Shown here: positions 41,021 to 60,946 of the stretch, in pieces
Layout: the number at the start of each line of letters is the position of its first letter
Numbering within the stretch: the stretch's first letter is position 1
Origin: an uncultured virus (IMG/VR IMGVR_UViG_3300044716_000940)
Taxonomy: Duplodnaviria > Heunggongvirae > Uroviricota > Caudoviricetes
IMG/VR virus record: IMGVR_UViG_3300044716_000940
Direction: 5' to 3' (one strand)
DNA: 64,000 nt
Position numbers and translations under genes: made by a program
Notes under the pieces: model-generated
Seen by the model: the letters and a program-made list of their open reading frames with translations, nothing else
What the model was told of the DNA's origin: nothing
The model's database searches: none

Positions 41021-41695
41021 CTATGAGTGAGCAGCTCTGTATTCGTGTACGAGTTGAGCGTGCCTGCTGTAGACGTGTAGTGATGCAGCATTCCACACAA
41101 TAGGACCTATTTGCAGATCAGGATAATTAAACAATAAATCCCTGTAGGCCTTATCATATACATGCTTATGCCACGCGTAATCGCCTTTATAACCGTATAC
41201 AGCGTCGTTAGACCTCATATAAACAAGGTAGTATAAAGTATTATTACGTATAAGCAGCTGCACCGTGTTAGTGCACATAAAGTCTTTCATACCGTTAAGC
41301 TTACTGTCAACGTGCATGCTAGGCCTGTTGTATATCATTACAGCCTGTCTACTACTCTTATCTGATAATACAGCGCTTATAGCCTTATCGTATTGATAGC
41401 CGTTATCAGCTGAGTATATACACCAACCGTAGTTGCTATTGATATAACCGTCTGTAGAGGCTACACTCTGCCAAATAGCAGGTATAGGAGCAGGTATATC
41501 ATTAACAGATAGGCTCTTACTCAGATACCACTGCAGCTCACGCTTATTCCAATCATGATTGACAGTTCCAAATATGGAATCTTCATCTGCTATAAAGGTA
41601 GCGTTAGCTATCTCTAATAGGCCGTTCTCGTCAGGTTCAATCTTGGTAAAAGCTTTTCTAATATCACTTACTCTAAGCTTAGTTCCTAATATCAT
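41021..41695 (-). CDS. dCMP hydroxymethylase (T4 gp42-like, thymidylate synthase fold)
   Basis: INSNYGW, DFMCTNTVQ, MRSND..G...DYAW, SLHVYSRH closely follow T4 gp42 as I recall it; start uncertain. Confidence 0.85.
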   Translation of the reverse strand: MILGTKLRVSDIRKAFTKIEPDENGLLEIANATFIADEDSIFGTVNHDWNKRELQWYLSKSLSVNDIPAPIPAIWQSVASTDGYINSNYGWCIYSADNGYQYDKAISAVLSDKSSRQAVMIYNRPSMHVDSKLNGMKDFMCTNTVQLLIRNNTLYYLVYMRSNDAVYGYKGDYAWHKHVYDKAYRDLLFNYPDLQIGPIVWNAASLHVYSRHAQLVHEYRAAHS

Positions 41696-41717
41696 GTTAT
41701 AGTCTTTATGTTTATTA

Positions 41718-42344
41718 TTACTTATTAAATTCAGCACCATCCTTAAAGCGGTCATCGCCTGCAGGATTAACATATGTGTGTTCTAATAACATCAATACAC
41801 AACATGCTGCATGGGCTAAATGGCTCTTGCCGGTCTCTGGGTCGTTATCCTCACCTGAGTGAAATGCCATTAGGTGTCTGAGAATCGCCGAGTAACTTCT
41901 TGACCAGGCAATCATTTCACCTTCACGCCAACTTTGTGCACCATACTTATCAGCGCCAAATGCTAATACCTCAGCGACGTCTTTAAGTGGCTTTACAGGG
42001 ATTAAGTGCATCGGTGCTTTGCCGCCATCGAACTTTGGAGCTTTTCCTGGCTCAAAGACAACTTTATCGTTTGTGGCTACTTTGCATTCTCTATCTACTG
42101 CATCTATTTCTTTCATGATATCTTCCGTTTCATAATTTATGCAAGGGCGATCTTCAGCGAGCAAGGCCGCTAGGCGTCTCTCTCGGGCTGTTTGCATCTC
42201 CCAGCGTTTTCCAGCTTCTTCCATTCTGGCTCTGTCTGCGTCCATCTGAGCACGCTCAATATATTCACCTAGCGTAAGCTCTGTGGTATAATATTTTCTA
42301 TCGTCCTCGTCATGGAACTTTGCGTTAGGATCGCTAGCCAACAT
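41718..42344 (-). CDS. dATP/dGTP diphosphohydrolase-like (DUF5664) protein
   Basis: KFDGGK....LIP, GADKYG..SW, RHL..F..GED.DPETG.SHLAHA. Confidence 0.75.
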   Translation of the reverse strand: MLASDPNAKFHDEDDRKYYTTELTLGEYIERAQMDADRARMEEAGKRWEMQTARERRLAALLAEDRPCINYETEDIMKEIDAVDRECKVATNDKVVFEPGKAPKFDGGKAPMHLIPVKPLKDVAEVLAFGADKYGAQSWREGEMIAWSRSYSAILRHLMAFHSGEDNDPETGKSHLAHAACCVLMLLEHTYVNPAGDDRFKDGAEFNK

Positions 42345-42756
42345 TAGATTTCTCCAGGTTGTGTTTTACGAGTATTTGTGTTAGTTTGTCCTCAGGACCA
42401 GTCCAGCCAGCAGGTTTAACTAGGTCGACACCTTTATATTCGGCACGATCTTTATCTGCTTTGTGAGGATTGTTTCCGGGCACCTTCTGTAGATTACATT
42501 CCATAACCGCATTAAATCCTTCCTGTAAGGGAAAGCCATGGCGGTAGAGCGAGCCTACAGTAAATACTAACAAATCGATTAATGCGTCATACTGGTCGGT
42601 AAGAGTGTCGGCTTCGTTATATTCCTCAATCTCTTCTCTCAAGCAGGATATACGATACATTTTCTCGTCTTGCTTTAAATGCCTTGGTGGGCCATTATAT
42701 GCTAAGCCATATTTAGTGTAGGCTTCGTTAATCTTTGTGATTAGTGGGTCGTTCAT
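42334..42756 (-). CDS. MazG-like nucleotide pyrophosphohydrolase
   Basis: EEIEEY..A...DALIDLL...V...N..K...KP.GW..P. Confidence 0.8.
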   Translation of the reverse strand: MNDPLITKINEAYTKYGLAYNGPPRHLKQDEKMYRISCLREEIEEYNEADTLTDQYDALIDLLVFTVGSLYRHGFPLQEGFNAVMECNLQKVPGNNPHKADKDRAEYKGVDLVKPAGWTGPEDKLTQILVKHNLEKSNVG

Positions 42757-43240: not shown

Positions 43241-43250
43241 GAGGGTGCTC

Positions 43251-43482
43251 TAAGTTATTGATTCTAAAGGCTATTTTAGTGCCCTAAGTTATTGATTTTG
43301 CACAACTTTCCATGGAGCTACTAACGCCTAAGTTATTGATTCTATTGACTATTTTACCCACGGGCAGCCTCTCTAAGTTATTGATTCTAAACGACTTTTA
43401 CCGAAAAGCTAAGTTATTGATTCTAAAGGCTTTTTTGACAGATTTTGGTCATTTTGGGCAGCCTCACCCTAAGTTATTGATT
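43251..43482. repeat. Array of six TAAGTTATTGATT repeats (IHF consensus)
   Basis: Copies start at 43251, 43285, 43329, 43374, 43410, 43470; reverse complement AATCAATAACTTA fits WATCAANNNNTTR. Confidence 0.8.
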
Positions 43483-43567
43483 TTAAACGACTTTTTTGTG
43501 CCTGAGGTCCATAACCAAGGAAAGAGTGAGAGTATTGACTGAATGATCCTTATTTATTATTAGATTA

Positions 43568-43737: not shown

Positions 43738-44079
43738 ATGAAAAATCAATTAAATGTAACATTATCTAATGGTAAATTGGTATTAACTGAAACTAAAGTT
43801 GTTATTACAGAAAATGTATTAACTGAGACTATGGATCCAGTTGAATTATCGAATATTATTCAAGCAAATGGATATAAATCTGCAAAATTCACAGATGAAG
43901 CGAAAGCCGAATTCCGTAGAATTGAGAAAGAAATCAAAGCTGCGAATAAAGCGAAAAAAGACGTAAAGCGTCAAGAACGTGAAGCTAAGAAAGCAGAACG
44001 TACTAAATTGCAAGAAAGCAAAATTGCCGAAAGAATGGCAAAATTGCAAGCGCAATTAGATAAATTAAAAACTAACTAA
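43738..44079 (+). CDS. First early protein, K/E-rich coiled coil
   Basis: 113 aa ORF with AAGGA RBS. Confidence 0.7.
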   Translation: MKNQLNVTLSNGKLVLTETKVVITENVLTETMDPVELSNIIQANGYKSAKFTDEAKAEFRRIEKEIKAANKAKKDVKRQEREAKKAERTKLQESKIAERMAKLQAQLDKLKTN

Positions 44080-44092
44080 AAAAGGAAATAAC

Positions 44093-44281
44093 ATGTTTTA
44101 TTATTTAATCTCAAATGGTGTAGAAACGAAAGTTTCGAAATCTAAAAAGATACACGATAAATCTTACTTTACAAGCAACAACCATCCAAGCAAATTATCG
44201 CTTTGGGTTGATGCAAACTATAGTAAAATTACGACAATGGTTGTAAGTAAACAAACTTATGATACATTTAAATCAGCATAA
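44093..44281 (+). CDS. Hypothetical early protein
   Basis: 62 aa with RBS; stop codon lies in HHR1 stem I. Confidence 0.65.
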   Translation: MFYYLISNGVETKVSKSKKIHDKSYFTSNNHPSKLSLWVDANYSKITTMVVSKQTYDTFKSA

Positions 44282-44327
44282 CTGATGAGGCTTTATTAGC
44301 CGAAACTACCGAAAGGTAGTATTATGC
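44276..44327 (+). ncRNA. Hammerhead ribozyme HHR1 (type I)
   Basis: GCAUAA-CUGAUGA-GGCU(UUAUU)AGCC-GAAA-CUACC(GAAA)GGUAG-UA^-UUAUGC; predicted cut after 44321. Confidence 0.93.
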
Positions 44328-44463
44328 ATAATATGGTGAAAGCCATAGAAGCACCGTCGAGCCAGAGTTGAACAGAACGACGTAAAAGTAATCGAACTCA
44401 ACCGTTTCGAGGATAACGTAAAAATCCTCACTAAATTATTTTATTATTGAAAGGAAAATTATT

Positions 44464-44634
44464 ATGAATAAAATTATATATAACGGTTTTAACCGTGGAG
44501 GTATGGTTAGCGCCATACATATGGAGTGTGATACTTCAAGCTTTACTTATAAGCTCAACGATGATGAACTCATCAAAGCGTTTAAAGAAATCTTCGCTGG
44601 AAATGCAAATTTCCTAGCTGTGGAGGACTTATAA
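44464..44634 (+). CDS. Hypothetical early protein (56 aa)
   Basis: ORF MNKIIYNGFNRGG with AAGGA RBS; below the ORF-track cutoff. Confidence 0.55.
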   Translation: MNKIIYNGFNRGGMVSAIHMECDTSSFTYKLNDDELIKAFKEIFAGNANFLAVEDL

Positions 44635-44783
44635 TGTTTGAAATGAAATACTTAATCATTGTGATTGGATTAGTTTACTTTGGTATTGGATTAGACCAAT
44701 ATTTCAAAGGATCTTTACCAAACCTTATTGTTTACACTGGCTACGCCTTTAGTAACATTGGTTTATATTTATTAGCTAAATAA
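44634..44783 (+). CDS. Small membrane protein (49 aa)
   Basis: Hydrophobic ORF, GGAGG RBS, start overlaps upstream stop. Confidence 0.55.
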   Translation: MFEMKYLIIVIGLVYFGIGLDQYFKGSLPNLIVYTGYAFSNIGLYLLAK

Positions 44784-44794
44784 AGGAATTAAAA

Positions 44795-44965
44795 ATGGAA
44801 TTAGCATTTTCTATCGTGTTTATCGTTGTTGTGATTGCCGCTGTATTGGGTTATATCGCAAACATCGTTAAACTTTTTTCACAGCTACAAGTGGACGGTA
44901 AAACAATTGCAAGAGCTTGTGGAGTATTTATATTCCCACTAGGAGCAATCTTAGGATGGTTCTAA
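44795..44965 (+). CDS. Small membrane protein (56 aa)
   Basis: MELAFSIVFIVVVIAAVLGYIANIVK...PLGAILGWF; AAGGA RBS. Confidence 0.6.
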   Translation: MELAFSIVFIVVVIAAVLGYIANIVKLFSQLQVDGKTIARACGVFIFPLGAILGWF

Positions 44966-44966
44966 C

Positions 44967-45017
44967 AATCTAACTGACGAGTCGGTAACGACGAAACCAC
45001 GAAAGTGGTCTTAGATT
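44967..45017 (+). ncRNA. Hammerhead ribozyme HHR2 (type I)
   Basis: AAUCUAA-CUGACGA-GUCG(GUAA)CGAC-GAAA-CCAC(GAAA)GUGG-UC^-UUAGAUU; cut after 45010. Confidence 0.95.
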
Positions 45018-45036
45018 ATTCACAAAAGGAGATCTT

Positions 45037-45831
45037 ATGAAAAATGACGTAATTGACGTCGAAGTAAAAGATGTAAAAATTGAGCAATTTCTAACTGAAA
45101 AGAAGGAATTGGTTCTTAATGCAGCTCAACGCACCGTTGAAGCGTATCTTGAAGTTGGTAAGCATCTCAAAGAAGTAAATGAGAAATTAGCAACTCGCAA
45201 TGGCGTAAATAGTCGTTGGGGTAGTTGGTTAGAAGAAGTAGGATTTGAGAAACAAAACGCAATTAACTGCATTCTAGTCTATGAGCGCTTTGGGAGGAAA
45301 ATTGATTTTCTTCCAAGCCAATCGATTACTATTCTTCAACAGTTATCAAAACCATCTAACGATCCTGAAAAGGTTGCTTTAGTTGAGCAAAAACTAGCTA
45401 AAGGTGAAAAGATGACCGTTGCTCAAGTTAAGGAAGTTCTTAAAAAGCTACCTGAAACTGAGCGAGAAATTGTCGCTAAAGCGGGTTATGAGCTCGCTGA
45501 AGAAGAACGAACTGGTATGACTAGCCAAGAATTAGATGCTTTCTACGAAAAGCAAGCAATTGAATATCAAGAAATTGAAAATGATATTTCAGATTTAAAG
45601 CCTATCGTTAAAAAGCAATATTCTGAAATGGTAATTGAAAGCCATCGCGAAGCATTTCTAGACGATATTGAATTATATTCATGGATCTTAGAAATGAAAA
45701 CATTTGCTGAAAACAATGGATATGTGTGTAAAGCTCTTGAAAGAGAAAATAACACTGTATTTAATAACACAAAAGAGATTAAAGAGCATATTAAGCACGC
45801 TAAATCTCAATTAAAAGAAGTATTTAAATAA
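45037..45831 (+). CDS. DUF3102-like domain protein
   Basis: LEVGKHLKEV...WGSWLEE.GF N-terminal pattern. Confidence 0.55.
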   Translation: MKNDVIDVEVKDVKIEQFLTEKKELVLNAAQRTVEAYLEVGKHLKEVNEKLATRNGVNSRWGSWLEEVGFEKQNAINCILVYERFGRKIDFLPSQSITILQQLSKPSNDPEKVALVEQKLAKGEKMTVAQVKEVLKKLPETEREIVAKAGYELAEEERTGMTSQELDAFYEKQAIEYQEIENDISDLKPIVKKQYSEMVIESHREAFLDDIELYSWILEMKTFAENNGYVCKALERENNTVFNNTKEIKEHIKHAKSQLKEVFK

Positions 45832-45852
45832 TATAAAGAAGGAATAAATCTT

Positions 45853-46278
45853 ATGAAAAGCTTTAAAGTAACAGCAGCACAGATAAATAAAATTGCAAAA
45901 ACAATGACCAAAGGTTTAAAAGCCAGTGGTCCAGTTTTATCTACAGCTATTAAAGATGTAGCAACAACGCTGAGCGCTGAGCGCGCCCAAGAAATTGCTT
46001 CATGGAAAGTATTAAAAGAAGCGATTAATGAAGTTAATGCTGCTAATAAAAAGGCATTTATTAGTGGTGATGCCCGGGCATTAGCTAAAATGTGGGATAT
46101 ATTTCCAGTAGGTATGGAAGGACATTCACGTATTAGAGAATTAATGACACACAAAGACGCTAGAGCTAAAAACTCAGGAGTGATATGGTCTCAATATGTT
46201 GGCGACCATAAAGCAAACTTAAAGCGTGCAAAAGCATCTATTAACTATTCAACAGCATTGATCAATGCTTACATATAA
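45853..46278 (+). CDS. Hypothetical early protein
   Basis: 141 aa with RBS. Confidence 0.7.
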   Translation: MKSFKVTAAQINKIAKTMTKGLKASGPVLSTAIKDVATTLSAERAQEIASWKVLKEAINEVNAANKKAFISGDARALAKMWDIFPVGMEGHSRIRELMTHKDARAKNSGVIWSQYVGDHKANLKRAKASINYSTALINAYI

Positions 46279-46323
46279 CTGATGAGTCGGGAACGACGAA
46301 ACTGGAGAAATCCAGTCTTATAT
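46273..46323 (+). ncRNA. Hammerhead ribozyme HHR3 (type I)
   Basis: AUAUAA-CUGAUGA-GUCG(GGAA)CGAC-GAAA-CUGGA(GAAA)UCCAG-UC^-UUAUAU; cut after 46317. Confidence 0.95.
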
Positions 46324-46337
46324 TAAAAGGAAATATT

Positions 46338-46661
46338 ATGAAAAAAGAATTTAAACCATACGATTTTATCGTAGAAATAGACGGAAAGTGGTATACGTCT
46401 GTCGAGTTTCGCGTTATTGTGGATTATGAAAATATCCTAAGTGGTCGCGAGCTTGAAGAGTCTGTTATGCTTGACACATTGGTGTATGACCGTTGGAATA
46501 TGGTTATGCCTATTACTAAGCGTGCTCGTCTCCTAATGGATGATGGCACTGGTGTAATCAAAGAGTGTGGTCGCTTTAAGTATAAAGTAAACTTTAACTC
46601 ACGTCAAGAGTTGGACGACGATTATGTCGTTGATCCACGCAATAGTAAAGGAAAATACTAA
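46338..46661 (+). CDS. Hypothetical early protein
   Basis: 107 aa with RBS. Confidence 0.7.
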   Translation: MKKEFKPYDFIVEIDGKWYTSVEFRVIVDYENILSGRELEESVMLDTLVYDRWNMVMPITKRARLLMDDGTGVIKECGRFKYKVNFNSRQELDDDYVVDPRNSKGKY

Positions 46662-46770
46662 TGGATTATAAAGAACCGACTGTTGGAGAGATCATTGGAT
46701 GGGTAATCATCTTAATGGTCTTTTTTGCTTTTTTGTTTTTTGGTTTACACTTAGAAAGTAGAGGAATATA

Positions 46771-47007
46771 ATGACTGTAAAAGACACTATGATTTCGTTG
46801 GCGCTCACTCAGCTCCATACCGATCTTTACCGTATTTATGAGATATGGCTAGAAGTTGGCAATGGCGATATGAGCGTATTAGAGCAACGTATGGATAAAA
46901 CTCGTGATGAGTTTATGGCTCGCACAAGTGGCCATTTAACGGAGCAAGAGCAAACCCGCTTTTTCGTTAAAGCGTATGAAGATACGTTGATTGCTGTATT
47001 AAGTTAA
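46771..47007 (+). CDS. Hypothetical early protein
   Basis: 78 aa with GAGGA RBS. Confidence 0.65.
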   Translation: MTVKDTMISLALTQLHTDLYRIYEIWLEVGNGDMSVLEQRMDKTRDEFMARTSGHLTEQEQTRFFVKAYEDTLIAVLS

Positions 47008-47052
47008 ACTGATGAGTCCTCAATGGACGAAACCTCGTGAGAGGTCTTTAAC
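47003..47052 (+). ncRNA. Hammerhead ribozyme HHR4 (type I)
   Basis: GUUAAA-CUGAUGA-GUCC(UCAAU)GGAC-GAAA-CCUC(GUGA)GAGG-UC^-UUUAAC; cut after 47046. Confidence 0.95.
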
Positions 47053-47073
47053 ACTTATTATAAAAGGAATATT

Positions 47074-47292
47074 ATGCCAAATAGTAACATACCGAACATG
47101 TCTTATTGCATGTTTGAAAATACTGAAAGCGCACTTGAACAGTGTGTGGACGCTATGAGCGAAGCGTATGATGTAGAATCGCTTGATATGAATGAGCATG
47201 AGCGCAGCGCATTTTTGCGTATGAGAAATCTATGTAAAGACTTCTTAGCATTTCATGACGAAATTTTAAATAACACAAAGGAATCATTATGA
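47074..47292 (+). CDS. Hypothetical early protein
   Basis: 72 aa with MSYCMFENT motif and RBS. Confidence 0.7.
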   Translation: MPNSNIPNMSYCMFENTESALEQCVDAMSEAYDVESLDMNEHERSAFLRMRNLCKDFLAFHDEILNNTKESL

Positions 47293-47546
47293 AAATGAAA
47301 TATAAAGCAGCCTTTACGGCTTTGAAGAAAATCGGTTGTCCAGTGTATGAGCACTGCGACGATAACGGCAACTTTAGCATTTCTGCTGAAGAGGCTACGT
47401 CTTACTTATGGTGTGATTATTATGATGGATACCGAATTCCCGATTGGGAGTTTGGCGTAAGTCCTAAAATCACAGAGCTATTGCGCTCTAAAGGATTATT
47501 TGCTGAATGGCAAAATCCTGGTCGCTTAGTCGTATTTGAGATTTAA
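47289..47546 (+). CDS. Hypothetical early protein
   Basis: 85 aa, coupled start. Confidence 0.7.
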   Translation: MKMKYKAAFTALKKIGCPVYEHCDDNGNFSISAEEATSYLWCDYYDGYRIPDWEFGVSPKITELLRSKGLFAEWQNPGRLVVFEI

Positions 47547-47554
47547 GGAATACT

Positions 47555-48025
47555 ATGACAGACGAATTTTCTAATAAAGCTGAAAACAGTATAGCGAAAG
47601 AGCTTGGCATTGCCCAACGCTTTATCGTCTTAAACCAAATACGAACTCCTGATGGCACGATCTTACGATCGCTAAGCCGTCACCATTACCAAACCTATAT
47701 CGATAAGAACGGTAAAGAGTATATGGTTGATGGAGGTAATGATTACCTTCGTCGTAATCGCCATGACGATGCGCCATACGATGAGTTGTCGATTTATTCT
47801 GATGACTCTTTCGACGTAATCAGGAGAAGTTTGCATTGGGGCACTTACGGTCCCAAAGGTGATCAGCCAAAGCGCTATGTCCCACTAGCTGAACTGTCAG
47901 ACAACCATATAATGGCGATACTCGACACTCAAGCTCAAGTGCAAGGACAATTGCGCGAATGGTTTAAAGAAGAATTAAGATGCCGTGAATACGGTAAATA
48001 TGAATATATAAAGGATACATTATGA
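47555..48025 (+). CDS. Hypothetical phage protein
   Basis: 156 aa with MVDGGNDYLRR and WGTYG motifs. Confidence 0.7.
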   Translation: MTDEFSNKAENSIAKELGIAQRFIVLNQIRTPDGTILRSLSRHHYQTYIDKNGKEYMVDGGNDYLRRNRHDDAPYDELSIYSDDSFDVIRRSLHWGTYGPKGDQPKRYVPLAELSDNHIMAILDTQAQVQGQLREWFKEELRCREYGKYEYIKDTL

Positions 48026-48249
48026 ATGTAAATGATTTTGAAGTATTAAATCGCCGCTACGCTATCGACATTAATCGATTCCGTGATGGACAAGGTTTAA
48101 CCGTTAATTTATTTAACGCACTGTTTGACTATTATTGTCAATCAAACGAAATGCCTTATGGAGTCGCCAAGGCGAGAACCGGGGATCCGTATGAATGGAT
48201 CGATTCTCAATTTAGCGATTTCTTAAAAGATTTCGATAATTCACCGTAA
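48022..48249 (+). CDS. Hypothetical early protein
   Basis: 75 aa with EMPYGVAKARTGDP motif. Confidence 0.7.
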   Translation: MNVNDFEVLNRRYAIDINRFRDGQGLTVNLFNALFDYYCQSNEMPYGVAKARTGDPYEWIDSQFSDFLKDFDNSP

Positions 48250-48320
48250 CTGATGAGCCGTGCATTCGGCGAAACTATTGTTGTGCAAAATTAAACACTT
48301 GCGCTGCAGTAGTCTTACGG
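48244..48320 (+). ncRNA. Hammerhead ribozyme HHR5 (type I, extended stem III)
   Basis: CCGUAA-CUGAUGA-GCCG(UGCAUU)CGGC-GAAA-CUAUUGU.GUGCAA(loop)UUGCGC.GCAGUAG-UC^-UUACGG; cut after 48314. Confidence 0.92.
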
Positions 48321-48427
48321 CCACCGTTGGAGCCATCGCTATGGCGGTAAACAACGTCCTTGTATTAGTTGACTCCCTTTGTTGACGAAATGCGAGCGCT
48401 TTCGCAGGTTGAGCGTTATCAATTTGC

Positions 48428-48476
48428 CTGTCCATGGATGTGTGTCCATGCTGATGAGCCACAAATGGCGAAACAG
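48428..48476 (+). ncRNA. Hammerhead ribozyme HHR6 (type III)
   Basis: CUG-UC^-CAUGGA(UGUGUG)UCCAUG-CUGAUGA-GCCA(CAAA)UGGC-GAAA-CAG; short stem III; cut after 48432. Confidence 0.88.
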
Positions 48477-48497
48477 ACTTATTATAAAGGAAATAAA

Positions 48498-48746
48498 ATG
48501 GAATATACGAAACTAGAGGAATTGCAATGCACTTTCTCCGATTTTCACAAAGACTATTATGGTTATAGACCGCGCTTTGCTACCACTGAAGAGTGGAATA
48601 GCGAAGAATGGCTACAAGCTGCGATTGACAGTATTCACGATGCGATCGCTTATAGAGCAAGAACACCTGAAGGTCGAGCATCGCTGCTTGCTGAAGGGTG
48701 GAGTTATGAAGTAATTGATACTAATTTAAAAGGAAATATATCATGA
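48498..48746 (+). CDS. Hypothetical early protein
   Basis: Start MEYTKL at 48498 behind AAGGA; SDFHKDYYGYRPR motif. Confidence 0.7.
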   Translation: MEYTKLEELQCTFSDFHKDYYGYRPRFATTEEWNSEEWLQAAIDSIHDAIAYRARTPEGRASLLAEGWSYEVIDTNLKGNIS

Positions 48747-49177
48747 AAGTAGTAAATAATCCACAGGTGTATATGGAACCTGGAACCTATTATATTGGCG
48801 ATTTGTGCTATGTATTAGACGCTTCTTGGAGCGCATTCTGCAAACTCACTATACGTGATAACGAATGTCTTAACGGCGGATTTAGATTCGCTGATGGACG
48901 TGAGTTCGTGTCGTTTACAACCATCTATGGTGATGGCACATATACCGACGCAGAAGGTTTTAAATATCCAGTTGATGCAGGCTTAATTGGCTGTATTCGT
49001 GTTGAAGATATGGACTGCAGAATCGATACAATCACTGACTGCGGCCAAATCCGCGTTTTTACTAAACCGTTTGTATGCGAAAAGGTTGATGGTATCCTTT
49101 ACTTCGGTAAAGTGGCAATCGATCTTGACCCGTCTGACTGTAATCAAGAAGAAGAGGAGTATGACGATGAGTATTAA
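48743..49177 (+). CDS. Hypothetical phage protein
   Basis: 144 aa; YYIGDLCYV, T.YGDG.Y, VDAGLIG. Confidence 0.7.
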   Translation: MKVVNNPQVYMEPGTYYIGDLCYVLDASWSAFCKLTIRDNECLNGGFRFADGREFVSFTTIYGDGTYTDAEGFKYPVDAGLIGCIRVEDMDCRIDTITDCGQIRVFTKPFVCEKVDGILYFGKVAIDLDPSDCNQEEEEYDDEY

Positions 49178-49595
49178 CTTAGAACTGCTTGAAAAAGATA
49201 TGGATATACCTGCATGGAAGATTGCAGAAATGCAACGAGCAGAATTAGCTGATCCAGCCGGTATGCGTATGAATTTCTTAAACGGAACTTTATTTGCTAC
49301 ACATTATGCATATACTGATATTAATCCGTATGAAGTGATTCGTATTGTATCGGACAATTGCTTGGAAGTTCGTGAAATGACTCATGAGAATGATCCAAAC
49401 GATATGCCAAAGTTTGTGCCCGGTGGTTTTAGTGTCATTTGCACTCACTTTGGTAAACGTGTAATTACGTCTAATCCGAATGGTAAAACGTTTAAAATTA
49501 CTCGTAAAAAGAAAGATCCAACTCGTTGGGGATATAAAGGTTTGCGGTTCGGTTTAGATAAAGAGCCACACGCTTATTACGATCATAACTTTTAA
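49167..49595 (+). CDS. Hypothetical phage protein
   Basis: Probable start MSINLEL behind GAGGAG; ends YYDHNF. Confidence 0.65.
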   Translation: MSINLELLEKDMDIPAWKIAEMQRAELADPAGMRMNFLNGTLFATHYAYTDINPYEVIRIVSDNCLEVREMTHENDPNDMPKFVPGGFSVICTHFGKRVITSNPNGKTFKITRKKKDPTRWGYKGLRFGLDKEPHAYYDHNF

Positions 49596-49603
49596 GGATC
49601 ATT

Positions 49604-49807
49604 ATGAACATTGAGCATGAAAAGCATGCAGCTGTAATGGCGGATGAGATGTATAGTCAATTTAAAGAAAATACATTAGACTATGTCAGAGAATTTACCG
49701 TCACTAAAGATGGTTTCGATGATTTAGAAGACGCCATAGCAGTGGAAAACTATGCTATAACATTATTTGCAATTAAATTATTAAAGGAAATACACAACTA
49801 TGAATAA
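49604..49807 (+). CDS. Hypothetical protein
   Basis: 67 aa with RBS. Confidence 0.6.
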   Translation: MNIEHEKHAAVMADEMYSQFKENTLDYVREFTVTKDGFDDLEDAIAVENYAITLFAIKLLKEIHNYE

Positions 49808-50117
49808 CGCATTAAGAACCTCAACATGGGTAGCTACGCTCCCTACGCTCACGTCTGACGAAGATGTGCTTGCTTTACGCGCCATTAAATCGGCTGTAAA
49901 GTCAATTAACGAAAGCAACGCAATGGCCGATGGCTATGCAAAGAAAGGCTATCGCGCTCGCTTTAATAAGAGCTGCGAACAAGTCGGTTTGCCGCGCTAT
50001 CGCGTAACCATTCGTGCTCGCGGTCCTATCAATGGATACAAGTATGGATGGGGAGGCTACTTAAAGTTAGCTGGTGGTAGTCGCTTTGATATCTATATTC
50101 ACGAACGGAGAGCGTAA
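49800..50117 (+). CDS. Hypothetical protein
   Basis: 105 aa with RBS. Confidence 0.6.
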   Translation: MNNALRTSTWVATLPTLTSDEDVLALRAIKSAVKSINESNAMADGYAKKGYRARFNKSCEQVGLPRYRVTIRARGPINGYKYGWGGYLKLAGGSRFDIYIHERRA

Positions 50118-50383
50118 TGCCTAAGTTTAAGATACCAAAGAAATACCAAAAGTATATTGACGAAAGCTCTATCGATGTTTATCACGATCTGGATGCGTCA
50201 ACATATTTCGTATGGTTACGTTATGGATATTGTTATGACTATGAAAATAGCCGTAGCCATACTCAAGGATACGACTCACTTAAAGAGGCGTTAGCCGGTC
50301 TTGATAGCGTTTATCTTTGCAATTGCGATGATTGCGCTAAAGAGCCGCTTGGAACTCCAGTAAAGGACCTAATGAATGCCTAA
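50117..50383 (+). CDS. Hypothetical protein
   Basis: 88 aa, coupled start. Confidence 0.6.
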   Translation: MPKFKIPKKYQKYIDESSIDVYHDLDASTYFVWLRYGYCYDYENSRSHTQGYDSLKEALAGLDSVYLCNCDDCAKEPLGTPVKDLMNA

Positions 50384-50582
50384 ATTTGTGGTGTATGAAA
50401 CCAAAGACAACGGTAAGGATTATGTCCTTGCCACTGTCGAAGGTATGTCAGCTGCTATGAAAGAGCTGAAGCGCCGTAAGAAGTTGGTGAAAGAAACCTC
50501 TGTCGTCGGTATGCAAGACAAAGAGATTTATTTATTTATTAAAAAACATCAAGAAAAGGAATTAAAGAAAAATGGCAACTAA
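50376..50582 (+). CDS. Hypothetical protein
   Basis: 68 aa with RBS. Confidence 0.55.
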   Translation: MPKFVVYETKDNGKDYVLATVEGMSAAMKELKRRKKLVKETSVVGMQDKEIYLFIKKHQEKELKKNGN

Positions 50583-50805
50583 ACCTAACACAGTAAAGAA
50601 GCAAAAGAATGGTAACCTTACTCGTAACGGTAAGCCAAAGCTTAAGTCGTTAAGTGTTGCACAAATTCAAAAGCTAATCGATCAAGGTGCGCAGAAGAAT
50701 GCTACATCGAAGATTGGCAAGAAGATGGCGAAGCTTAAGAATGCACTATGTGCTCGCTTTACACCATTAGTCGATAGCGATCCTATCGGTTTTCAACAAA
50801 GTTAA
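50572..50805 (+). CDS. Hypothetical basic protein
   Basis: 77 aa; stop codon lies in HHR7 stem I. Confidence 0.6.
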   Translation: MATKPNTVKKQKNGNLTRNGKPKLKSLSVAQIQKLIDQGAQKNATSKIGKKMAKLKNALCARFTPLVDSDPIGFQQS

Positions 50806-50850
50806 ACTGATGAGTCCTTAATGGACGAAACCGCTTCGGCGGTCTTTAAC
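50801..50850 (+). ncRNA. Hammerhead ribozyme HHR7 (type I)
   Basis: GUUAAA-CUGAUGA-GUCC(UUAAU)GGAC-GAAA-CCGC(UUCG)GCGG-UC^-UUUAAC; cut after 50844. Confidence 0.95.
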
Positions 50851-50868
50851 ATATTATAAGGAGAATGT

Positions 50869-51699
50869 ATGGATGATTTTAAGCCAATGTTGGCTAGTGT
50901 ATTTAAACCAGAGAAATTAAAATTTCCAAAGTTAGCATCAAGAAAATTGGATGGTATTCGCTGTGTAATTCGTGATGGCGTTGCGCTATCTCGTAATGGC
51001 AAGCCCATTCGCAATACGCATATTCAATCCATTATTGGCCGTAAAGCGTTTAACGACTTAGATGGCGAATTAATGGTTGGTAAGCCGAACGATAAGCACG
51101 CATTTCGCACAGCGACAAGCGGTGTAATGTCAGAAGATGGCGAACCAGATTTTACGTTCTTTGTATTCGATATTATGGCTGATGGCGTTGGCTTTCAAGA
51201 GCGCTTAGCTGTAGCTAAAAGTATCGTAAAGAAAGCTGCAATGAAGCAAGTAAAGATTGTTGAGCATAAGATGGTCCGTAATATGGAACAGCTTGACGAG
51301 CTTGAAGCTGCCTTCCTTGAAGATGGATTCGAAGGCGTTATGTTGCGCTCACTTGATGGTCCATACAAGCTTGGACGGTCTAGCGTCACTGAAGGCCATT
51401 TGCTTAAAGTGAAGCGCTTTAGTGATGGCGAAGCTGTCATTGTCGATTACGTTGAAGAAGTTACAAGTAAAGATAGAACTCCTAAGAATTCATTAGGTAA
51501 ATTTATCTGTCGCTTGGAGAATGGCGTAGAGTTCGGCGTTGGCGGTGGGTATACTAAGATAGAGCGCGAAGAATTTTGGAAGAAGAAGGATAAGATGATT
51601 GGTCTAATATTAAAGTATAAACACTTTCCTATTGGCCAGCATGAGCGTCCACGTTTCCCAACGTTCCTTGGTATTCGCGACGAAAGCGATATGTCGTAA
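50869..51699 (+). CDS. ATP-dependent DNA ligase
   Basis: KLDGIR, LDGEL, FFVFD, EGVMLR, LLKVKRF, PRFP.F. Confidence 0.93.
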   Translation: MDDFKPMLASVFKPEKLKFPKLASRKLDGIRCVIRDGVALSRNGKPIRNTHIQSIIGRKAFNDLDGELMVGKPNDKHAFRTATSGVMSEDGEPDFTFFVFDIMADGVGFQERLAVAKSIVKKAAMKQVKIVEHKMVRNMEQLDELEAAFLEDGFEGVMLRSLDGPYKLGRSSVTEGHLLKVKRFSDGEAVIVDYVEEVTSKDRTPKNSLGKFICRLENGVEFGVGGGYTKIEREEFWKKKDKMIGLILKYKHFPIGQHERPRFPTFLGIRDESDMS

Positions 51700-51740
51700 A
51701 AACGGTTCACTCGGTTAATCCCGGGTGAGCTACTATCCCC

Positions 51741-51753
51741 TAAGTTATTGATT
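51741..51753. promoter_or_regulatory. Isolated seventh TAAGTTATTGATT (IHF consensus) site
   Basis: Same 13-mer as the 43.25-43.48 kb array, between a hairpin and the next RBS. Confidence 0.55.
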
Positions 51754-51767
51754 ATAAAGGACTTATT

Positions 51768-52157
51768 ATGAATAAACAGTATACAAAAGACAAACAAAGA
51801 GCTAACAACTCTCCGCTAGCTTACGCAAAATATCGATATAATGCTCAAAAGCAAGCTGCCAAAACGCGAGGAATTGCTTGGGAGCTTGAGCCTTATAAAG
51901 ATGAAGTAATTTTTAAAATTGCTACTGCGGTAGTCTGTGCTGAAAGCGGGCGTAAACTTGTTCACCAAATCGGCAAGTCTAATTCTTATAAACCTAGCAT
52001 CGATCGCATAACAAGTAAAATAGGATACACCATATCAAACATTCAAATAACAACTTCTAGCATTAATGTAGCTAAGATGTCTCTAGAATCTAAAGAGTTT
52101 TACGAGATGTGTAGAGACGTTGTTGCACATTCAGCTTCTAAATATGAAAGGCAATAA
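51768..52157 (+). CDS. Putative HNH-like endonuclease
   Basis: AK.RGI.W, C..SG, PSIDRI.S..GY...NIQ...N..K. Confidence 0.65.
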   Translation: MNKQYTKDKQRANNSPLAYAKYRYNAQKQAAKTRGIAWELEPYKDEVIFKIATAVVCAESGRKLVHQIGKSNSYKPSIDRITSKIGYTISNIQITTSSINVAKMSLESKEFYEMCRDVVAHSASKYERQ

Positions 52158-52525
52158 TGGCTGGACCTCAAGGTAAGGCAATGGCGGTTGGCTCTCACTG
52201 CGCACGCAAAAACGTGTCAGTTGACGGCTATACTCGCTATGCAGTAAGACCACACAATGTCGAGCCATCAGGCGTTTATTTGAATAAAGTAAAAGCATGG
52301 ATGCATGAACACATGGAGTGGGAGACAAAGCAATGGGAGAAGAAGTTTGGTGTCAAAGAGTGGTGGCAGATGGTTAAGATTGAAATGACCAATTACTGCT
52401 TCGGCTTTGAAGGCAATCAAGCGACTTATCTTTATTTAAAATATAAAGGAGAACTTGATGAATCGCAAGCGAAACCTAGTGGCGAAATACGCGGCAAGAT
52501 TCGCTATAAGCAAGCCGATTCTTAG
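52157..52525 (+). CDS. Hypothetical protein
   Basis: 122 aa, coupled start. Confidence 0.55.
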   Translation: MAGPQGKAMAVGSHCARKNVSVDGYTRYAVRPHNVEPSGVYLNKVKAWMHEHMEWETKQWEKKFGVKEWWQMVKIEMTNYCFGFEGNQATYLYLKYKGELDESQAKPSGEIRGKIRYKQADS

Positions 52526-52576
52526 CAAAAAGCAACGAGCTAAGAGTCGTAAAGTAAAACATAAGCGTAAGGATGG

Positions 52577-53056
52577 ATGATGAATATCTTTTATTTGCAC
52601 GAAGATCCTGTAATGGCGGCAGAAATGCATTGCGACAAGCATGTATGCAAGATGATTATCGAAACGGCTCAGATGATGAGCTCTGTTTATTCGCGATATG
52701 GTTGTGAAAATCCGCCATACAAACCAACGCATCAAAAGCACCCATCAACTGTGTGGACTGGCGACAGCCAACTACACTATAACTGGGTGCGCACGCTTGG
52801 TTTGCAGCTTTGCCGTGAATACACCAAGCGCTATAATAAAACCCATAAGACTGAAGCTGTTATAAAGGCTTTATGGTTAGCGCCAAAAGATATGCCGATA
52901 TTGGCATGGCAAGATCCGCCACAGTGTATGGATGCGGAGTATAAGCGTGATAATACGATCGAAGCTTATCGTAATTATTATATAATGGCGAAAGCTAAGT
53001 TTGCCAAATGGGCACACGCAACAAAGGCACCGCAATGGTGGCCTAACACAGTATAA
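52577..53056 (+). CDS. Pyrimidine-dimer glycosylase (DenV)-related family protein
   Basis: MNIFYL..DP..AA..HCDKHV.KMI.E.AQ, YK.TH..HP..W, EY..RY.K.H. Confidence 0.6.
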   Translation: MMNIFYLHEDPVMAAEMHCDKHVCKMIIETAQMMSSVYSRYGCENPPYKPTHQKHPSTVWTGDSQLHYNWVRTLGLQLCREYTKRYNKTHKTEAVIKALWLAPKDMPILAWQDPPQCMDAEYKRDNTIEAYRNYYIMAKAKFAKWAHATKAPQWWPNTV

Positions 53057-53100
53057 CTGATGAGTCCTAATGGACGAAACGCCGTGATGGCGTCTTATAC
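53051..53100 (+). ncRNA. Hammerhead ribozyme HHR8 (type I)
   Basis: GUAUAA-CUGAUGA-GUCC(UAAU)GGAC-GAAA-CGCC(GUGAU)GGCG-UC^-UUAUAC; cut after 53094. Confidence 0.95.
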
Positions 53101-53116
53101 ATTATAAAGGAGAACT

Positions 53117-54670
53117 ATGATAGATGAAATCAAGCAAAAGTTATCCATCGCCAAAGTAGAACTAAAGACAGAGCAAGCAGCTTTGCGCTCTTTAGTGGCG
53201 GTAAGAGATAGCGCAAAACGCGCAGCGAAAACAGCTGTTATGTTTCGTGGCACTCCGTTTTACTTCCGTATCGGAATGGACTTCCGCGGTCGTATGTATT
53301 ACAAAGGCGCTCACTTGAATCCTCAAATGGGCGATGACATTAAGTCAACATTAGTCTTAGCAAATAAAAAACCTTTAGGTGCTGATGGCTATAAATGGTT
53401 ATTGTGGGGAGTAGCATCCTCAGCTGGTTTCGATAAAGCTGATTTCCAAACACGTGTTAATTACACATTGGATAATTTATTCGAAATCAAAGAAGCAGTG
53501 GCTAATCCGAATGAATCTGAGTTCTTTAAGAAAGTTCACTCTGATGGAGAGCCTGCTTTATTCTTGCAGCGAGCCGGTGAGTTGGTGAAAGCGCTTGAGT
53601 CGGGTTCGATTCAGACGTATGAGACCGATATCACTATTGCTATGGACGCTACTTGCTCTGGCTTACAGCTATTATCCGCTGTGGCACGCGACGCTGAAGG
53701 CGGTTCGTTAGTGAATATCACAGCGACTGCTGAAGGTCAAACAGAAAAGCGAGATGTGTATAGCAAGGTTTGCCAGCTTATCTTAGAGAAGTATGCTGAT
53801 TTGCCGGATAATTTCTTTGCACAGTGGATTACCAAATATGGTCTTCCGCGTCGCTTTACAAAGAAAGTGGTAATGACATTGCCATACTCTGCTACGGTTC
53901 GTGGCGCGATCTCTTATGTTCAAGAGGAATTGTATGGTAATCCTGAGAAAGGTGCTTTGCCATACGATCTTCCAACTGAGCCAGCAGATCGCTTATCGCT
54001 ATTAATGGCGGCTAGAGCGTTAGCACATATTGATCGAGTGGATGAGGATATCTCAACTGACTCGTTATACTATGTGATGGCTACTGTGCTTGCTAAAGAT
54101 ATGCATGAGACTTGCCATAAAATCCTGCCAGCAGCTATGAAGCTATTGGACTTCTTTAAATCGACACCAAGTCATTTATTTGACCATGCGATTTGGAATA
54201 CTCCTGATGGCTTGCATGTTAAGCAGCTTTATGGTGTGAAAGAAGACTTTACTTTCCACTACAAGTTTATGCACACTGATCCAGCGACTGGTGAGATTGC
54301 TCCAACAACTATATTCCGTAAATATAACTATTTGGATCCGAGTGAGAAAAATAGAAGCAAAGCCGCTAATGGTATGCCACCAAATTGGGTGCACTCATTG
54401 GACGCTACGCTAGTTCGACGTGTGGTGTTAAAGTCTCCATTCGACATTGTGTGTATTCACGATTCGTTTGCAGCACACCCAGCTGATTGTAATAAATTAG
54501 CGTCGATTTTACGTGAAGAGTTTGTATGGTTAATTGAGCAAGATCCACTAGGAACTTTGATTAAACAGCTGAACGATCAAGTTGGCGCTCAAGTATTCTC
54601 CACTGAAGGATTGATGGTGAATACGCTAAAGACCGATGATCCACTAAGATCGGAGTTCTTATTCTGTTAA
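53117..54670 (+). CDS. T7-like RNA polymerase, C-terminal catalytic subunit
   Basis: DFRGRMY, DATCSGLQ (motif A), R..TKKVVMTLPY (motif B), PNWVHSLDA, IHDSF (motif C); lacks the N-terminal domain. Confidence 0.93.
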   Translation: MIDEIKQKLSIAKVELKTEQAALRSLVAVRDSAKRAAKTAVMFRGTPFYFRIGMDFRGRMYYKGAHLNPQMGDDIKSTLVLANKKPLGADGYKWLLWGVASSAGFDKADFQTRVNYTLDNLFEIKEAVANPNESEFFKKVHSDGEPALFLQRAGELVKALESGSIQTYETDITIAMDATCSGLQLLSAVARDAEGGSLVNITATAEGQTEKRDVYSKVCQLILEKYADLPDNFFAQWITKYGLPRRFTKKVVMTLPYSATVRGAISYVQEELYGNPEKGALPYDLPTEPADRLSLLMAARALAHIDRVDEDISTDSLYYVMATVLAKDMHETCHKILPAAMKLLDFFKSTPSHLFDHAIWNTPDGLHVKQLYGVKEDFTFHYKFMHTDPATGEIAPTTIFRKYNYLDPSEKNRSKAANGMPPNWVHSLDATLVRRVVLKSPFDIVCIHDSFAAHPADCNKLASILREEFVWLIEQDPLGTLIKQLNDQVGAQVFSTEGLMVNTLKTDDPLRSEFLFC

Positions 54671-54688
54671 AAATTTTATGAAAGAGAG

Positions 54689-55597
54689 ATGCTTATGGTA
54701 GAAACGACTAGAGAGTATCAAATGGAGCGAGAGTTCGAAATGATTAAGCTTGGGCTGCAAGTCCAGCAAAATCTAACGGTTAATCTTCGCATTGCATCCA
54801 TCGAATTTAAACGTGAAATCGAGCAATTGACACAAGCTATATTAACATGGAGAAAAGCCGATCGCTTTCGAGGTAGTGAGCGAAAGGCTTATTCTACGTT
54901 GTTGGATACTTTGCCAGCTCAAGTGGTTGCAGAGAATATTATTTATGCAATCCTTGAAACTCACTTAAAAACTGACGATGGCGCACCAATAACTTTCCAG
55001 TTTATTGTGACAAATGCTTTAATATTAAGCCGATTTAAGGCATTATTGCCAAAAGAAGCTACGGCTATTCCTCACCAATTTAAGTTTAAAATTGTGGATA
55101 TGCTTGTAACTAGAGGAGTGTATTTATTATCCTCAATCTTTGTGGTGAAAAAGCAATACCAAGAGATGGCGTCTATTGAGCTTACAACTCGTGCTAAAAA
55201 TCGTTTAGCTGAGGTAGACAGCCGATCGCTTATGTTTGATGGCCCAATGCACTGCAAGCCAGAAGATTGGGTTTCTGTATTTAATGGCGGTTATTTAACT
55301 TCTGAAATGCAGAAAACTGCACCATTGGTTCGGAGCTTGCAACATGACTTTAAAGAGCTAGTGGCCATTGATCGTTCTTTACAAGCTCACCCGGAAATCT
55401 TGCAATCCGTTAATAAACTGCAAGGCGTCTGTTTTAAAATCGATGAGAATTATGAGCAATATCATAATACTGTGGATAATTTTAGAATACACGCAATCAA
55501 AAAGGTTGAGACTAACTTAACCAAGCTAAAAGCCGAAATTCTTAAACTCGAGCAAGAGTTAAAAGAAGCTGAGGCCAGCACAGCTGATGAGACTTGA
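54689..55597 (+). CDS. T7-like RNA polymerase, N-terminal subunit
   Basis: PMHCKPEDW....GGY....PLVR...QSVNKLQ...FKID resembles T7 RNAP PCVVPPKPW..GGGY...LVR...AINIAQ...WKIN. Confidence 0.8.
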   Translation: MLMVETTREYQMEREFEMIKLGLQVQQNLTVNLRIASIEFKREIEQLTQAILTWRKADRFRGSERKAYSTLLDTLPAQVVAENIIYAILETHLKTDDGAPITFQFIVTNALILSRFKALLPKEATAIPHQFKFKIVDMLVTRGVYLLSSIFVVKKQYQEMASIELTTRAKNRLAEVDSRSLMFDGPMHCKPEDWVSVFNGGYLTSEMQKTAPLVRSLQHDFKELVAIDRSLQAHPEILQSVNKLQGVCFKIDENYEQYHNTVDNFRIHAIKKVETNLTKLKAEILKLEQELKEAEASTADET

Positions 55598-55627
55598 TTA
55601 GTCGAAACGCCGTGAGGCGTACTGTGC
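55578..55627 (+). ncRNA. Hammerhead ribozyme HHR9 (type I)
   Basis: GCACAG-CUGAUGA-GACU(UGAUU)AGUC-GAAA-CGCC(GUGA)GGCG-UA^-CUGUGC; overlaps the last codons of the RNAP N-subunit gene; cut after 55621. Confidence 0.93.
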
Positions 55628-55672
55628 AATACCCGGTATACCGCTAGGAAGTGTATTTCACCATGTGGAATA

Positions 55673-55701
55673 ATATCCGCCTTAGGTATACTAAGACATG
55701 G
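55673..55701 (+). promoter_or_regulatory. Candidate phage-RNAP promoter upstream of replication genes
   Basis: ATATCCGCCTTAGGTATACTAAGACATGG, exact inverted copy of 43182-43210. Confidence 0.65.
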
Positions 55702-55739
55702 AACCAAACCATGTTTTTTTTAACCTTATAGGAAATAAG

Positions 55740-56279: not shown

Positions 56280-56658
56280 GCAAGTTGGAAATTACTTAGG
56301 ATTTCGTTCTGGACTTGAAGAGCGTGTTGCCGAACAGTTAGTTGAAGCTAAAGTTCCGTTCACTTTCGAAGAGATGAAGATTAGTTATTTAAAGCCTGAG
56401 CGTAAAGCAATTTATACTCCTGACTTTGTATTATCTAATGGGATTATCGTCGAAACTAAAGGAAGGTTTTTAACTGCTGATCGGCAAAAACATCTGCTTG
56501 TCAAAGAGCAACATCCAGAGTTAGATTTACGTTTTGTGTTTAGCAGCTCAAAAACTAAAATTTCAAAATCATCAAAAACCTCTTACGGCGATTGGTGTGA
56601 GAAGAATGGTTTTCAATATGCTGACAAAACTATCCCCAACGAATGGCTAAAGGAATAA
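56230..56658 (+). CDS. Endonuclease I (T7 gp3-like)
   Basis: FRSGLEE, YTPDF.L.NGI.VETKGRF, DRQKHL, YGDWCEK.GF; start uncertain. Confidence 0.92.
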   Translation: MKKRSQHLAKRPTRTSKQVGNYLGFRSGLEERVAEQLVEAKVPFTFEEMKISYLKPERKAIYTPDFVLSNGIIVETKGRFLTADRQKHLLVKEQHPELDLRFVFSSSKTKISKSSKTSYGDWCEKNGFQYADKTIPNEWLKE

Positions 56659-56659
56659 G

Positions 56660-58270: not shown

Positions 58271-58271
58271 G

Positions 58272-58517: not shown

Positions 58518-58520
58518 TCA

Positions 58521-60933: not shown

Positions 60934-60946
60934 TAGGAGAAACGCT

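Follow-up and report, generated by a model that had tools for sequence, protein, structure and literature searches.

A conserved three-hairpin RNA between a type I and a type III hammerhead ribozyme in the early operon of a lake-water phage

The window, i.e., the whole stretch of 64,000 nucleotides that was analyzed, represents most of a tailed phage originating from lake water. A 118-nt non-coding RNA is located in its early arm between a type I hammerhead ribozyme, HHR5, and a type III hammerhead ribozyme, HHR6. The comparison with related phages indicates that this piece belongs to a conserved, uncatalogued phage RNA family with three hairpins, that it is probably a small RNA with a function of its own, and that the two hammerheads are probably the device for its release. 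A natural cassette of ribozyme, RNA and ribozyme had been claimed in the original prediction, and the claim was supported by the sequence as well as by the comparison; the topology leaves the middle piece nearly free of ribozyme sequence. The cassette and its two neighboring genes, both taken from the list of open reading frames, consist of the following elements:

48022..48249, + strand: upstream early gene encoding a protein of 75 aa, with homologues in 40 viral loci
48244..48320, + strand: HHR5, type I hammerhead with a long two-part stem III (stem I 6/6 paired, core CUGAUGA...GAAA, triplet GUC)
48315..48432, + strand: excised non-coding RNA of 118 nt, bounded by the cut sites of HHR5 and HHR6
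48428..48476, + strand: HHR6, type III hammerhead, downstream of its own cut (RF00008, 41.7 bits, E 1.1e-5)
48477..48746, + strand: leader ACUUAUUAUAAAGGAAAUAAA and downstream gene encoding a protein of 82 aa (ATG at 48498)

The same cassette was found in L033, in L032 and in the metagenome contig L080, which are the three close relatives of the window. A second lineage is represented by G004, which has 57% identity to the window on the 75-aa protein, and a third by L129, a more distant phage with the same promoter-like repeats and type I hammerheads.

The upstream ribozyme, HHR5, was parsed as a complete type I hammerhead. In stem I, CCGUAA (48244-48249) pairs with UUACGG (48315-48320), the core CUGAUGA (48250-48256) is followed by stem II (48257-48270) and GAAA (48271-48274), and stem III is a 40-nt two-part hairpin that reaches U48313. 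The triplet is GUC, and thus the cut is placed after C48314, in agreement with the predicted position. The TAA stop codon (48247-48249) of the 75-aa gene, for which no Pfam family was found, falls inside stem I. The Rfam model RF00163 did not match HHR5 in the window at E values up to 10, probably owing to the length of stem III. With this model 30 bits were obtained for the G004 copy, the cut-off being 34. HHR5 was complete in all five lineages that were parsed, with alterations in stems I, II and III and with GUC or GUA as cleavage site. The G004 copy has three compensatory pairs in stem I, and in L080 stems II and III have been swapped for different, compact ones and stem I has been retained. 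A pattern scan for type I hammerheads with a long stem III did not yield a new member.

In the downstream ribozyme, HHR6, stem III is formed by CUGU (48428-48431) and ACAG (48473-48476), and C17 is nucleotide 48432. The stem I hairpin CAUGGA-UGUGUG-UCCAUG (48433-48450) is followed by the core CUGAUGA (48451-48457), stem II with GCCA-CAAA-UGGC (48458-48469) and GAAA (48470-48473). The core, the A15.1-U16.1 pair and the NUH triplet (GUC, 48430-48432) of a type III hammerhead are all present. The E value with RF00008 refers to the whole window, and the score is below the curated cut-off of 48.5 bits; the G004 copy has 47.4 bits with the same model. As had been predicted, HHR6 is the only type III copy, one among 11 hammerheads in the window, and its cut is after 48432. 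A scan for its stem I motif (GGAUGUGUNUCC) revealed the same type III subfamily in G004 and in four other phage groups. Stem II occurs in four forms, GCCA/UGGC, GUUC/GAAC, GUCC/GGAC and GUCG/CGAC, and the window and its close relatives L033, L032 and L080 have one of the first three. In an alignment of 11 sequences made with MAFFT, without fitting to a structure, 154 of 154 cells were paired and 6 of 14 pairs were compensatory; the search pattern had set four stem I pairs and the core beforehand, and, therefore, these are uninformative with respect to selection on HHR6. Neither the covariation score nor the number of cells changed on both sides was matched by any of 500 shuffles, six compensatory pairs were reached by 9 of 500, and slid controls gave 0-1 pairs. 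Taken together, the compensatory changes show, at the level of sequence comparison, that the folds of both HHR5 and HHR6 are maintained by selection.

The type III subfamily also occurs without a cargo. In other phages with a lone type III hammerhead a hairpin ends 0-2 nt before stem III. It was clear in 8 of the 11 aligned sequences and weak in L102; for L090 and L104 the 45-nt window was too short to contain it, and a longer hairpin is visible in the fuller sequence. In L090, L093, L100 and L102 the type III hammerhead lies alone between genes, and the hairpin is always 0-2 nt before a stem III of 4-6 bp. Two whole IMG/VR records, L095 (366 nt) and L098 (377 nt), contain a type III stem I and loop, GUGGAUGUGUAUCCAC, that is identical to that of the G004 ribozyme. 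In size and sequence these two records presumably resemble plant sobemovirus satellite (virusoid) RNAs. The identity of the stem-loop with G004 could be due to shared ancestry or to convergence.

The two cut sites define the excised RNA, and the coordinates given for a 118-nt fragment between a type I and a type III cut were right. Only little ribozyme sequence had been expected on it, and, indeed, it retains six letters of HHR5 and five of HHR6 and neither of the catalytic cores. From the chemistry of hammerhead cleavage its ends should be a 5'-OH and a 2',3'-cyclic phosphate. The view that it contains no credible open reading frame also held, because its sole ATG is deleted in three of the four close relatives, and indels of -3, +1, +1 and +1 were found. 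The cargo has a length of exactly 118 nt in all four close sequences, i.e., the window, L033, L032 and L080. Its identity to the three close relatives is 105/120, 103/121 and 104/121 (85-87.5%) versus 46/76, 45/76 and 50/76 (59-66%) for the third codon positions of the upstream 75-aa gene in the same relatives, and thus a lack of conservation, which would have spoken against a functional RNA, was not observed. The cargo is single-copy and not a repeated motif of the window.

The RNA consists of three hairpins and a single-stranded linker:

48325..48356, + strand: hairpin A, with outer stem CGUUG/CAACG, internal loop GA / (U)AAA and a variable tip
48359..48396, + strand: hairpin B, with basal stem CUUGUAU/AUGCGAG, apical stem GUUGAC/GUUGAC and loop UCCCUUU (48374-48380)
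48397..48403, + strand: single-stranded linker CGCUUUC, in which GCUUU is invariant
48404..48427, + strand: hairpin C (GCAGGUUGA / UCAAUUUGC), immediately next to stem III of HHR6

Folded as a single sequence, the 118 nt from the window were unremarkable, with a z value of -1.78 that was equalled by 7 of 200 shuffles. Independent minimum-energy folds of the G004 and L129 cargos gave the same three hairpins, with z values of -2.46 and -2.96, respectively. Among the six distinct sequences, which represent only three independent lineages, 19 of 32 pairs have changed on both sides, and pairing was found in 96.3% of 187 cells. Fitting of these alignments to the model favors the structure, and the independent folds serve as a check. 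The observed covariation was not reached by any of 500 shuffles, and slid controls gave 1-5 pairs. In the first two lineages alone 12 of the 32 pairs have changed on both sides. The comparison shows that the three hairpins have been kept by compensatory change in three lineages. The stem substitutions among the close relatives also preserve pairing, e.g., by exchange of G-U for G-C or A-U.

In hairpin A all five outer pairs have changed on both sides across the lineages, and GA and AA in the internal loop are invariant. Its outer stem is the first of the two stems that had been predicted for the fragment (CGUUG/CAACG), and this stem covaries. The second one (GUUGA..UGCGA/UCGCA..UCAAU) had to be abandoned, because it has 0 compensatory changes and four of its five outer pairs break in G004. 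In hairpin B 8 of 13 pairs have changed on both sides, and CCCUUU in the loop is invariant in all six distinct sequences. In hairpin C 4 of 10 pairs have changed on both sides, and in the close relatives two of three single-base insertions generate one extra A-U pair. As a hairpin occupies this place also in phages with the type III ribozyme alone, hairpin C may assist the short stem III, of 4 bp, or shield the 3' end of the RNA upstream, and it might be part of the type III ribozyme module rather than of the cargo. It is also present in L129, where no hammerhead is found beside it, and is, therefore, a part of the RNA family too. The + strand gave the better fold in all of five sequences, with a difference of 6-10.5 kcal/mol to the - strand, as is expected for an RNA with G-U pairs.

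The search for homologues with a covariance model, which the original prediction had suggested, revealed the same RNA in two further phage lineages. The model R1, which was built from four close sequences only, matched the cargo of the G004 type with 41.6 bits (E 1.8e-9) and the L129 cargo with 30.7 bits (E 1.7e-6). In the G004 cassette the type I hammerhead shares the unusually long stem III, the cargo has 125 nt, and stem I of the type III hammerhead is UGUGGA-UGUGUA-UCCACA. Its position is different: it sits behind a 180-aa gene, a homologue of the first early gene of the window (43738-44079), and the slot behind the 75-aa gene is occupied by a plain type I hammerhead only. In L106 and L109 the G004 cargo is unchanged (125/125) and the next gene is unrelated; over the 200 nt that follow the cargo, G004 and L106 are identical at 131/223 positions. 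A replacement of the downstream gene by another one, with the cassette kept, was also found in L032. In L034 the same slot contains a type I hammerhead, then a gene, then another hammerhead.

The third lineage, L129, differs in that its RNA has no hammerhead beside it; the distance to the nearest core is 690 nt on the upstream side and 1650 nt on the downstream side. A gene for a small membrane protein ends with its stop codon in front of the RNA, and behind the RNA are a 10-bp hairpin and then a promoter-like repeat:

6719-6863, 10388 and 14180 of L129: promoter-like repeat CTAAGTTATTGATT, one copy of which is directly behind the RNA

As the RNA is thus in the apparent 3' untranslated end of a message, it may have a role in cis in this phage. 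In total, the family was found in eight contigs besides the window's own, with one copy per phage record. A second model, R2, which included the three lineages, was applied to related loci of about 500 kb in total and did not detect another member, and exact-word scans with two 21-mers of the cargo found the same phages only; the scans of the collection used exact patterns, which miss diverged members. The comparison showed that the RNA is independent of both neighboring genes and that it occurs with and without ribozymes. The retention of the cassette RNA while both flanking genes change was read as that of a self-contained functional RNA matured by ribozymes.

The RNA was not assigned to any catalogued family. 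Rfam 15 gave no family match at the cargo in any of the three lineage types; the sole match at the cargo of the window was to ALIL, with 11.5 bits and an E value of 0.4 in a search with 136 nt. No tRNA or tmRNA was found in the cargo and no sigma-70-like promoter in the spacer; the promoter scan as a whole gave 30 sites compared with 29.7 in shuffles. A decayed hammerhead within the cargo, based on 'CUUGUAUUA...GUUGACGAAA', was considered and rejected, because the 136-nt search gave no match with a hammerhead model. Likeness to a CRISPR repeat, as in RNA anti-CRISPRs (PMC10651486), was addressed by a scan of one genome each of 185,579 species with an exact 20-mer of hairpin B, an exact-word scan that is blind to diverged repeats; the result was one isolated match in an unrelated GC-rich contig, without an array.

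The cassette is part of a hammerhead-rich operon. A loose core pattern occurred 12 times in the window, always on the + strand, compared with 0.86 expected occurrences, and none of 100 shuffles reached 12. By inspection 11 of the 12 are hammerheads, ten of type I and HHR6 as the only one of type III; the twelfth match (61535) was rejected, because it lies within an ORF and does not look like a hammerhead. The 11 co-oriented copies lie between genes from 44274 to 59100, as is characteristic of a hammerhead-punctuated phage operon. In most type I copies the TAA of the gene forms the last three letters of the stem I 5' strand, right before CUGAUGA, and in type I copies at gene ends the next ribosome site is about 20 nt past the cut. 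The leader ACUUAUUAUAAAGGAAAUAAA behind HHR6 is similar to leaders behind other hammerheads of the window (families D13 and D16). With the curated Rfam thresholds one hammerhead was detected in the window, and with relaxed thresholds four type I copies and one type III copy (48425-48479); a second, weak RF00008 match at 59038 is a type I copy by inspection. Weak matches to RAGATH-1, a model of a type I hammerhead plus a small upstream hairpin, were seen at 58488-58579, 53024-53099 and 44943-45015, with 30-34 bits and a cut-off of 56.3. The leader after the first hammerhead (44322-44463, 142 nt, untranslated) was rejected as a second cassette, since it has a z value of -0.85 and is without a second ribozyme, and candidate double-hammerhead sites of L017 and L060, which came from a loose motif scan, turned out to be coding sequence.

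The genes of the window are organized in two arms, which diverge from a region with five copies of the promoter-like repeat:

351-42756, - strand: late and metabolic genes, including tape measure, portal, capsid, terminase and ribonucleotide reductase
43250-43502: five copies of the promoter-like repeat CTAAGTTATTGATT at the head of the early arm
43738-63718, + strand: early and replication genes, including DNA ligase, T7-like RNA polymerase, SSB, primase-helicase and family A polymerase
51738-51773: one copy of the promoter-like repeat inside the early arm

Several further features of the phage were observed. The T7-like RNA polymerase is split over two ORFs. The first (53117-54670) carries the catalytic domain (PF00940), and the second (54689-55597), which matches the N-terminal domain PF14700 weakly and below the threshold, overlaps at its end with the hammerhead core at 55584. 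On the - strand a thymidylate-synthase-like gene, a MazG-like pyrophosphohydrolase and a domain of a dATP/dGTP diphosphohydrolase (PF18909) are neighbors at 41021-42756, which may hint at modified DNA bases. A related viral contig, L128 (59% identity on a 56-aa early protein), encodes a tmRNA of the betaproteobacterial type at 2251-2625 (RF01850, 158 bits), and this may give a clue to the group of the host or mark a site of integration. No match to the region of the window, to the second-lineage (G004) type or to the third-lineage type was found among GenBank phages, and G001, the nearest record, is identical in sequence but breaks off within the cassette. Two IMG/VR contigs of the same phage terminate within the cassette and overlap by exactly 127 nt (48297-48423), and unitigs from lake runs begin at 48315 and end at 48444. 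On both sides of the conserved cargo the variable stems of the ribozymes are branch points of the assembly graph. Contigs from four DNA runs contained already known haplotypes only, and no RNA run was found that covers 47500-49500.

For the preferred reading, i.e., the release of a functional small RNA, the following course of events is proposed. The early operon would be transcribed rightward as one long RNA. HHR5, which lies entirely on the 5' side of its cut site, and HHR6, which lies entirely on the 3' side, would each fold and cut co-transcriptionally. The upstream message would retain a compact ribozyme as its 3' end, and the downstream message would begin with a ribozyme and a 5'-OH. 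The middle RNA would be freed as a linear molecule with a 5'-OH, a terminal hairpin and the 2',3'-cyclic phosphate, ends that should slow down end-dependent nucleases. It would then fold into the hairpins A, B and C and act on its own. On this reading cleavage would take place in vivo, and the RNA would accumulate.

Alternatively, the piece could be a processing by-product or an insulator: the double cut would only cap the messages, the hairpins would prevent misfolding of the ribozymes, and the piece would be degraded. Every other junction of the window uses hammerheads for cuts between genes, hairpins similar to hairpin C precede this type III in phages without cargo, and processing of transcripts has been proposed for such clusters by Perreault et al. 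(2011, PMC3088659). However, an insulator needs neither invariant letters in a loop and a linker nor the 19 of 32 covarying pairs, L129 has the same RNA without an adjoining ribozyme to insulate, and ten other junctions of the window do with one type I ribozyme and no spacer. It is thus unlikely that the piece is nothing but a by-product.

The original prediction had also considered a possibly circular RNA. RtcB joins 5'-OH and cyclic-phosphate ends, i.e., the products of hammerhead cleavage, and synthetic, twister-based systems for circular RNAs share the layout of ribozyme, RNA and ribozyme. A host ligase of the RtcB kind could thus close the excised RNA to a nuclease-proof circle: the expected ends are RtcB substrates, the synthetic systems provide a precedent for the layout, and 5' ACGG pairs with 3' CUGU in the minimum-energy folds of three of the four close relatives. 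This end-joining stem does not covary, however, and the window, the G004 type and L129 all fold without it. As each end derives from another hammerhead and neither has a core, self-ligation is excluded; no RNA ligase is encoded in the window, and L129 has the RNA without ribozymes beside it. Circular products of clustered hammerheads have been sought by Perreault et al. (PMC3088659), and none were detected. With unlike, coreless ends, an end-joining stem in few folds and no RNA ligase in the window, the claim of circularity was not upheld, and a circle appears improbable.

A further alternative is a cis-acting element that would modify the polymerase while the RNA is nascent and thereby enable it to read through hairpins in the 20-kb early operon. 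The put antiterminator RNAs of phage HK022 are nascent-RNA elements that modify the polymerase. The several hairpins with conserved internal loops, the constant location on the transcribed strand of the early arm, and the 10-bp hairpin directly after the RNA in L129 would fit such a role. On the other hand, neither sequence nor model searches gave a match to any catalogued element, and the location with respect to promoters varies: in the window the RNA comes about 5 kb after the promoter, and in L129 it immediately precedes an internal promoter-like motif. Little probability was, therefore, assigned to this role.

It could also be imagined that hairpins A and B form a sensor that turns HHR6 on or off, with a small alternative hairpin, GCGAG...GCA, that would undo hairpins B and C. 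The elements GCGAG, GCUUU and GCA are conserved as sequence, and the alternative hairpin, which is the inner part of the abandoned second stem, is possible in four of the five sequences (87.5% of cells). The alternative stem shows no compensatory change, however, L129 has no adjoining ribozyme that could be controlled, and no match to a riboswitch family was found, which makes a sensor very improbable. Lastly, L034, with a gene between two hammerheads in the same slot, could suggest that a gene cassette has been lost here and has left the piece behind as a neutral relic, but the cargo is conserved far above synonymous sites, it covaries and it has homologues at other positions, and thus this explanation is extremely improbable.

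The excised small RNA, the explanation favored here, could tentatively be viewed as a new class of phage small RNAs, matured by hammerheads in some lineages, that might act early and in trans, either as a mimic of the anti-Shine-Dalgarno sequence of the ribosome, by which translation would be tuned, or as a decoy for a host factor or a defence system. The invariant C/U-rich loop would be the working surface, which could pair with Shine-Dalgarno-like AAAGG(G) sequences, in analogy to UCCC-loop RNAs, or hold a protein; in this specific form the proposal is rather doubtful. The loop sequence CCCUUU has AAAGG(G) as its complement, and the ribosome sites of the early genes have AAAGG as their core. 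At early genes AAAGGA is favored, with AAAGG in 19 of 38 sites and GGAG in 8 of 38, and at late genes AAGGAG is favored, with AAAGG in 9 of 44 sites and GGAG in 24 of 44. AAAGGGA sites were not kept in the relatives. A candidate trans target on the - strand transcript (30275-30287, 13 bp) was rejected, because it lies inside the frame of ORF 29572-30378 and is not conserved in relatives; its BLAST E value was 5.2. The same applies to pairing in cis with the downstream ribosome site, which comprises 7 bp in G004 and is absent in L106, which has an identical cargo. Splicing of the flanks via a hybrid hammerhead was also dismissed, because the end of the upstream product (UAGUC) pairs with ACAG of HHR6 at two of four positions only.

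The purpose of most hammerheads in bacteria and phages is open, and they are usually read as devices that chop operons. In the present case the item that would be cut out is a conserved structured RNA instead of a gene, and thus it offers a testable case of ribozymes that mature a non-coding RNA. The results provide the catalogues with a new family of RNAs, and they also add a natural design, with type I before and type III behind, for the release of RNAs with minimal extra sequence, and a compact type III subfamily in which a 4-bp stem III is abutted by a hairpin. The latter shares with RF00008 the full core, the closed stems I and II, the open stem III and the GUC site; unlike typical members, HHR6 scores 41.7 bits (below 48.5), its stem III has just 4 bp, and a hairpin abuts it.

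Clustered hammerheads in phages and prophages have been known since 2011 and were proposed to process transcripts; spliced or circular products were considered as well (Perreault et al. 2011, PMC3088659). As described there, co-oriented hammerheads of mixed type would cut a long phage transcript into gene-length pieces in the window. Unlike the flanked genes in that report (PMC3088659), the flanked piece is here a conserved structured non-coding RNA, and, because type I precedes type III, the cores would depart with the flanks. A conserved cargo without a gene between phage hammerheads was not found in open-access articles.

Three further systems resemble the cassette in part. The UCCC-loop RNAs of Firmicutes, i.e., RsaE and its relatives, have a loop that is complementary to ribosome-binding sites. 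Like these, the excised RNA has a C-rich, unpaired loop of conserved sequence (Geissmann et al. 2009, PMC2790875); the likeness is one of form alone, with no homology, and no target was found here. Retrozymes and viroid-like circular RNAs also comprise a small non-coding RNA between hammerhead cuts, but, as described by de la Pena et al. (2020, PMC7761336), they have the ribozyme inside the unit, it is rebuilt by the ends, and the units form tandem repeats. The 118-nt RNA, by contrast, has no core, is single-copy and has ends from a type I and a type III hammerhead. Lastly, synthetic guide RNAs flanked by ribozymes (reference 51 in PMC10651486) have the ribozymes outside the cuts and are released with clean ends, as is proposed here, and they are engineered, unlike the cassette of the window, which is natural and conserved. 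If the preferred reading is true, this 'scarless' hammerhead pair would be the natural counterpart of engineered ribozyme-RNA-ribozyme cassettes.
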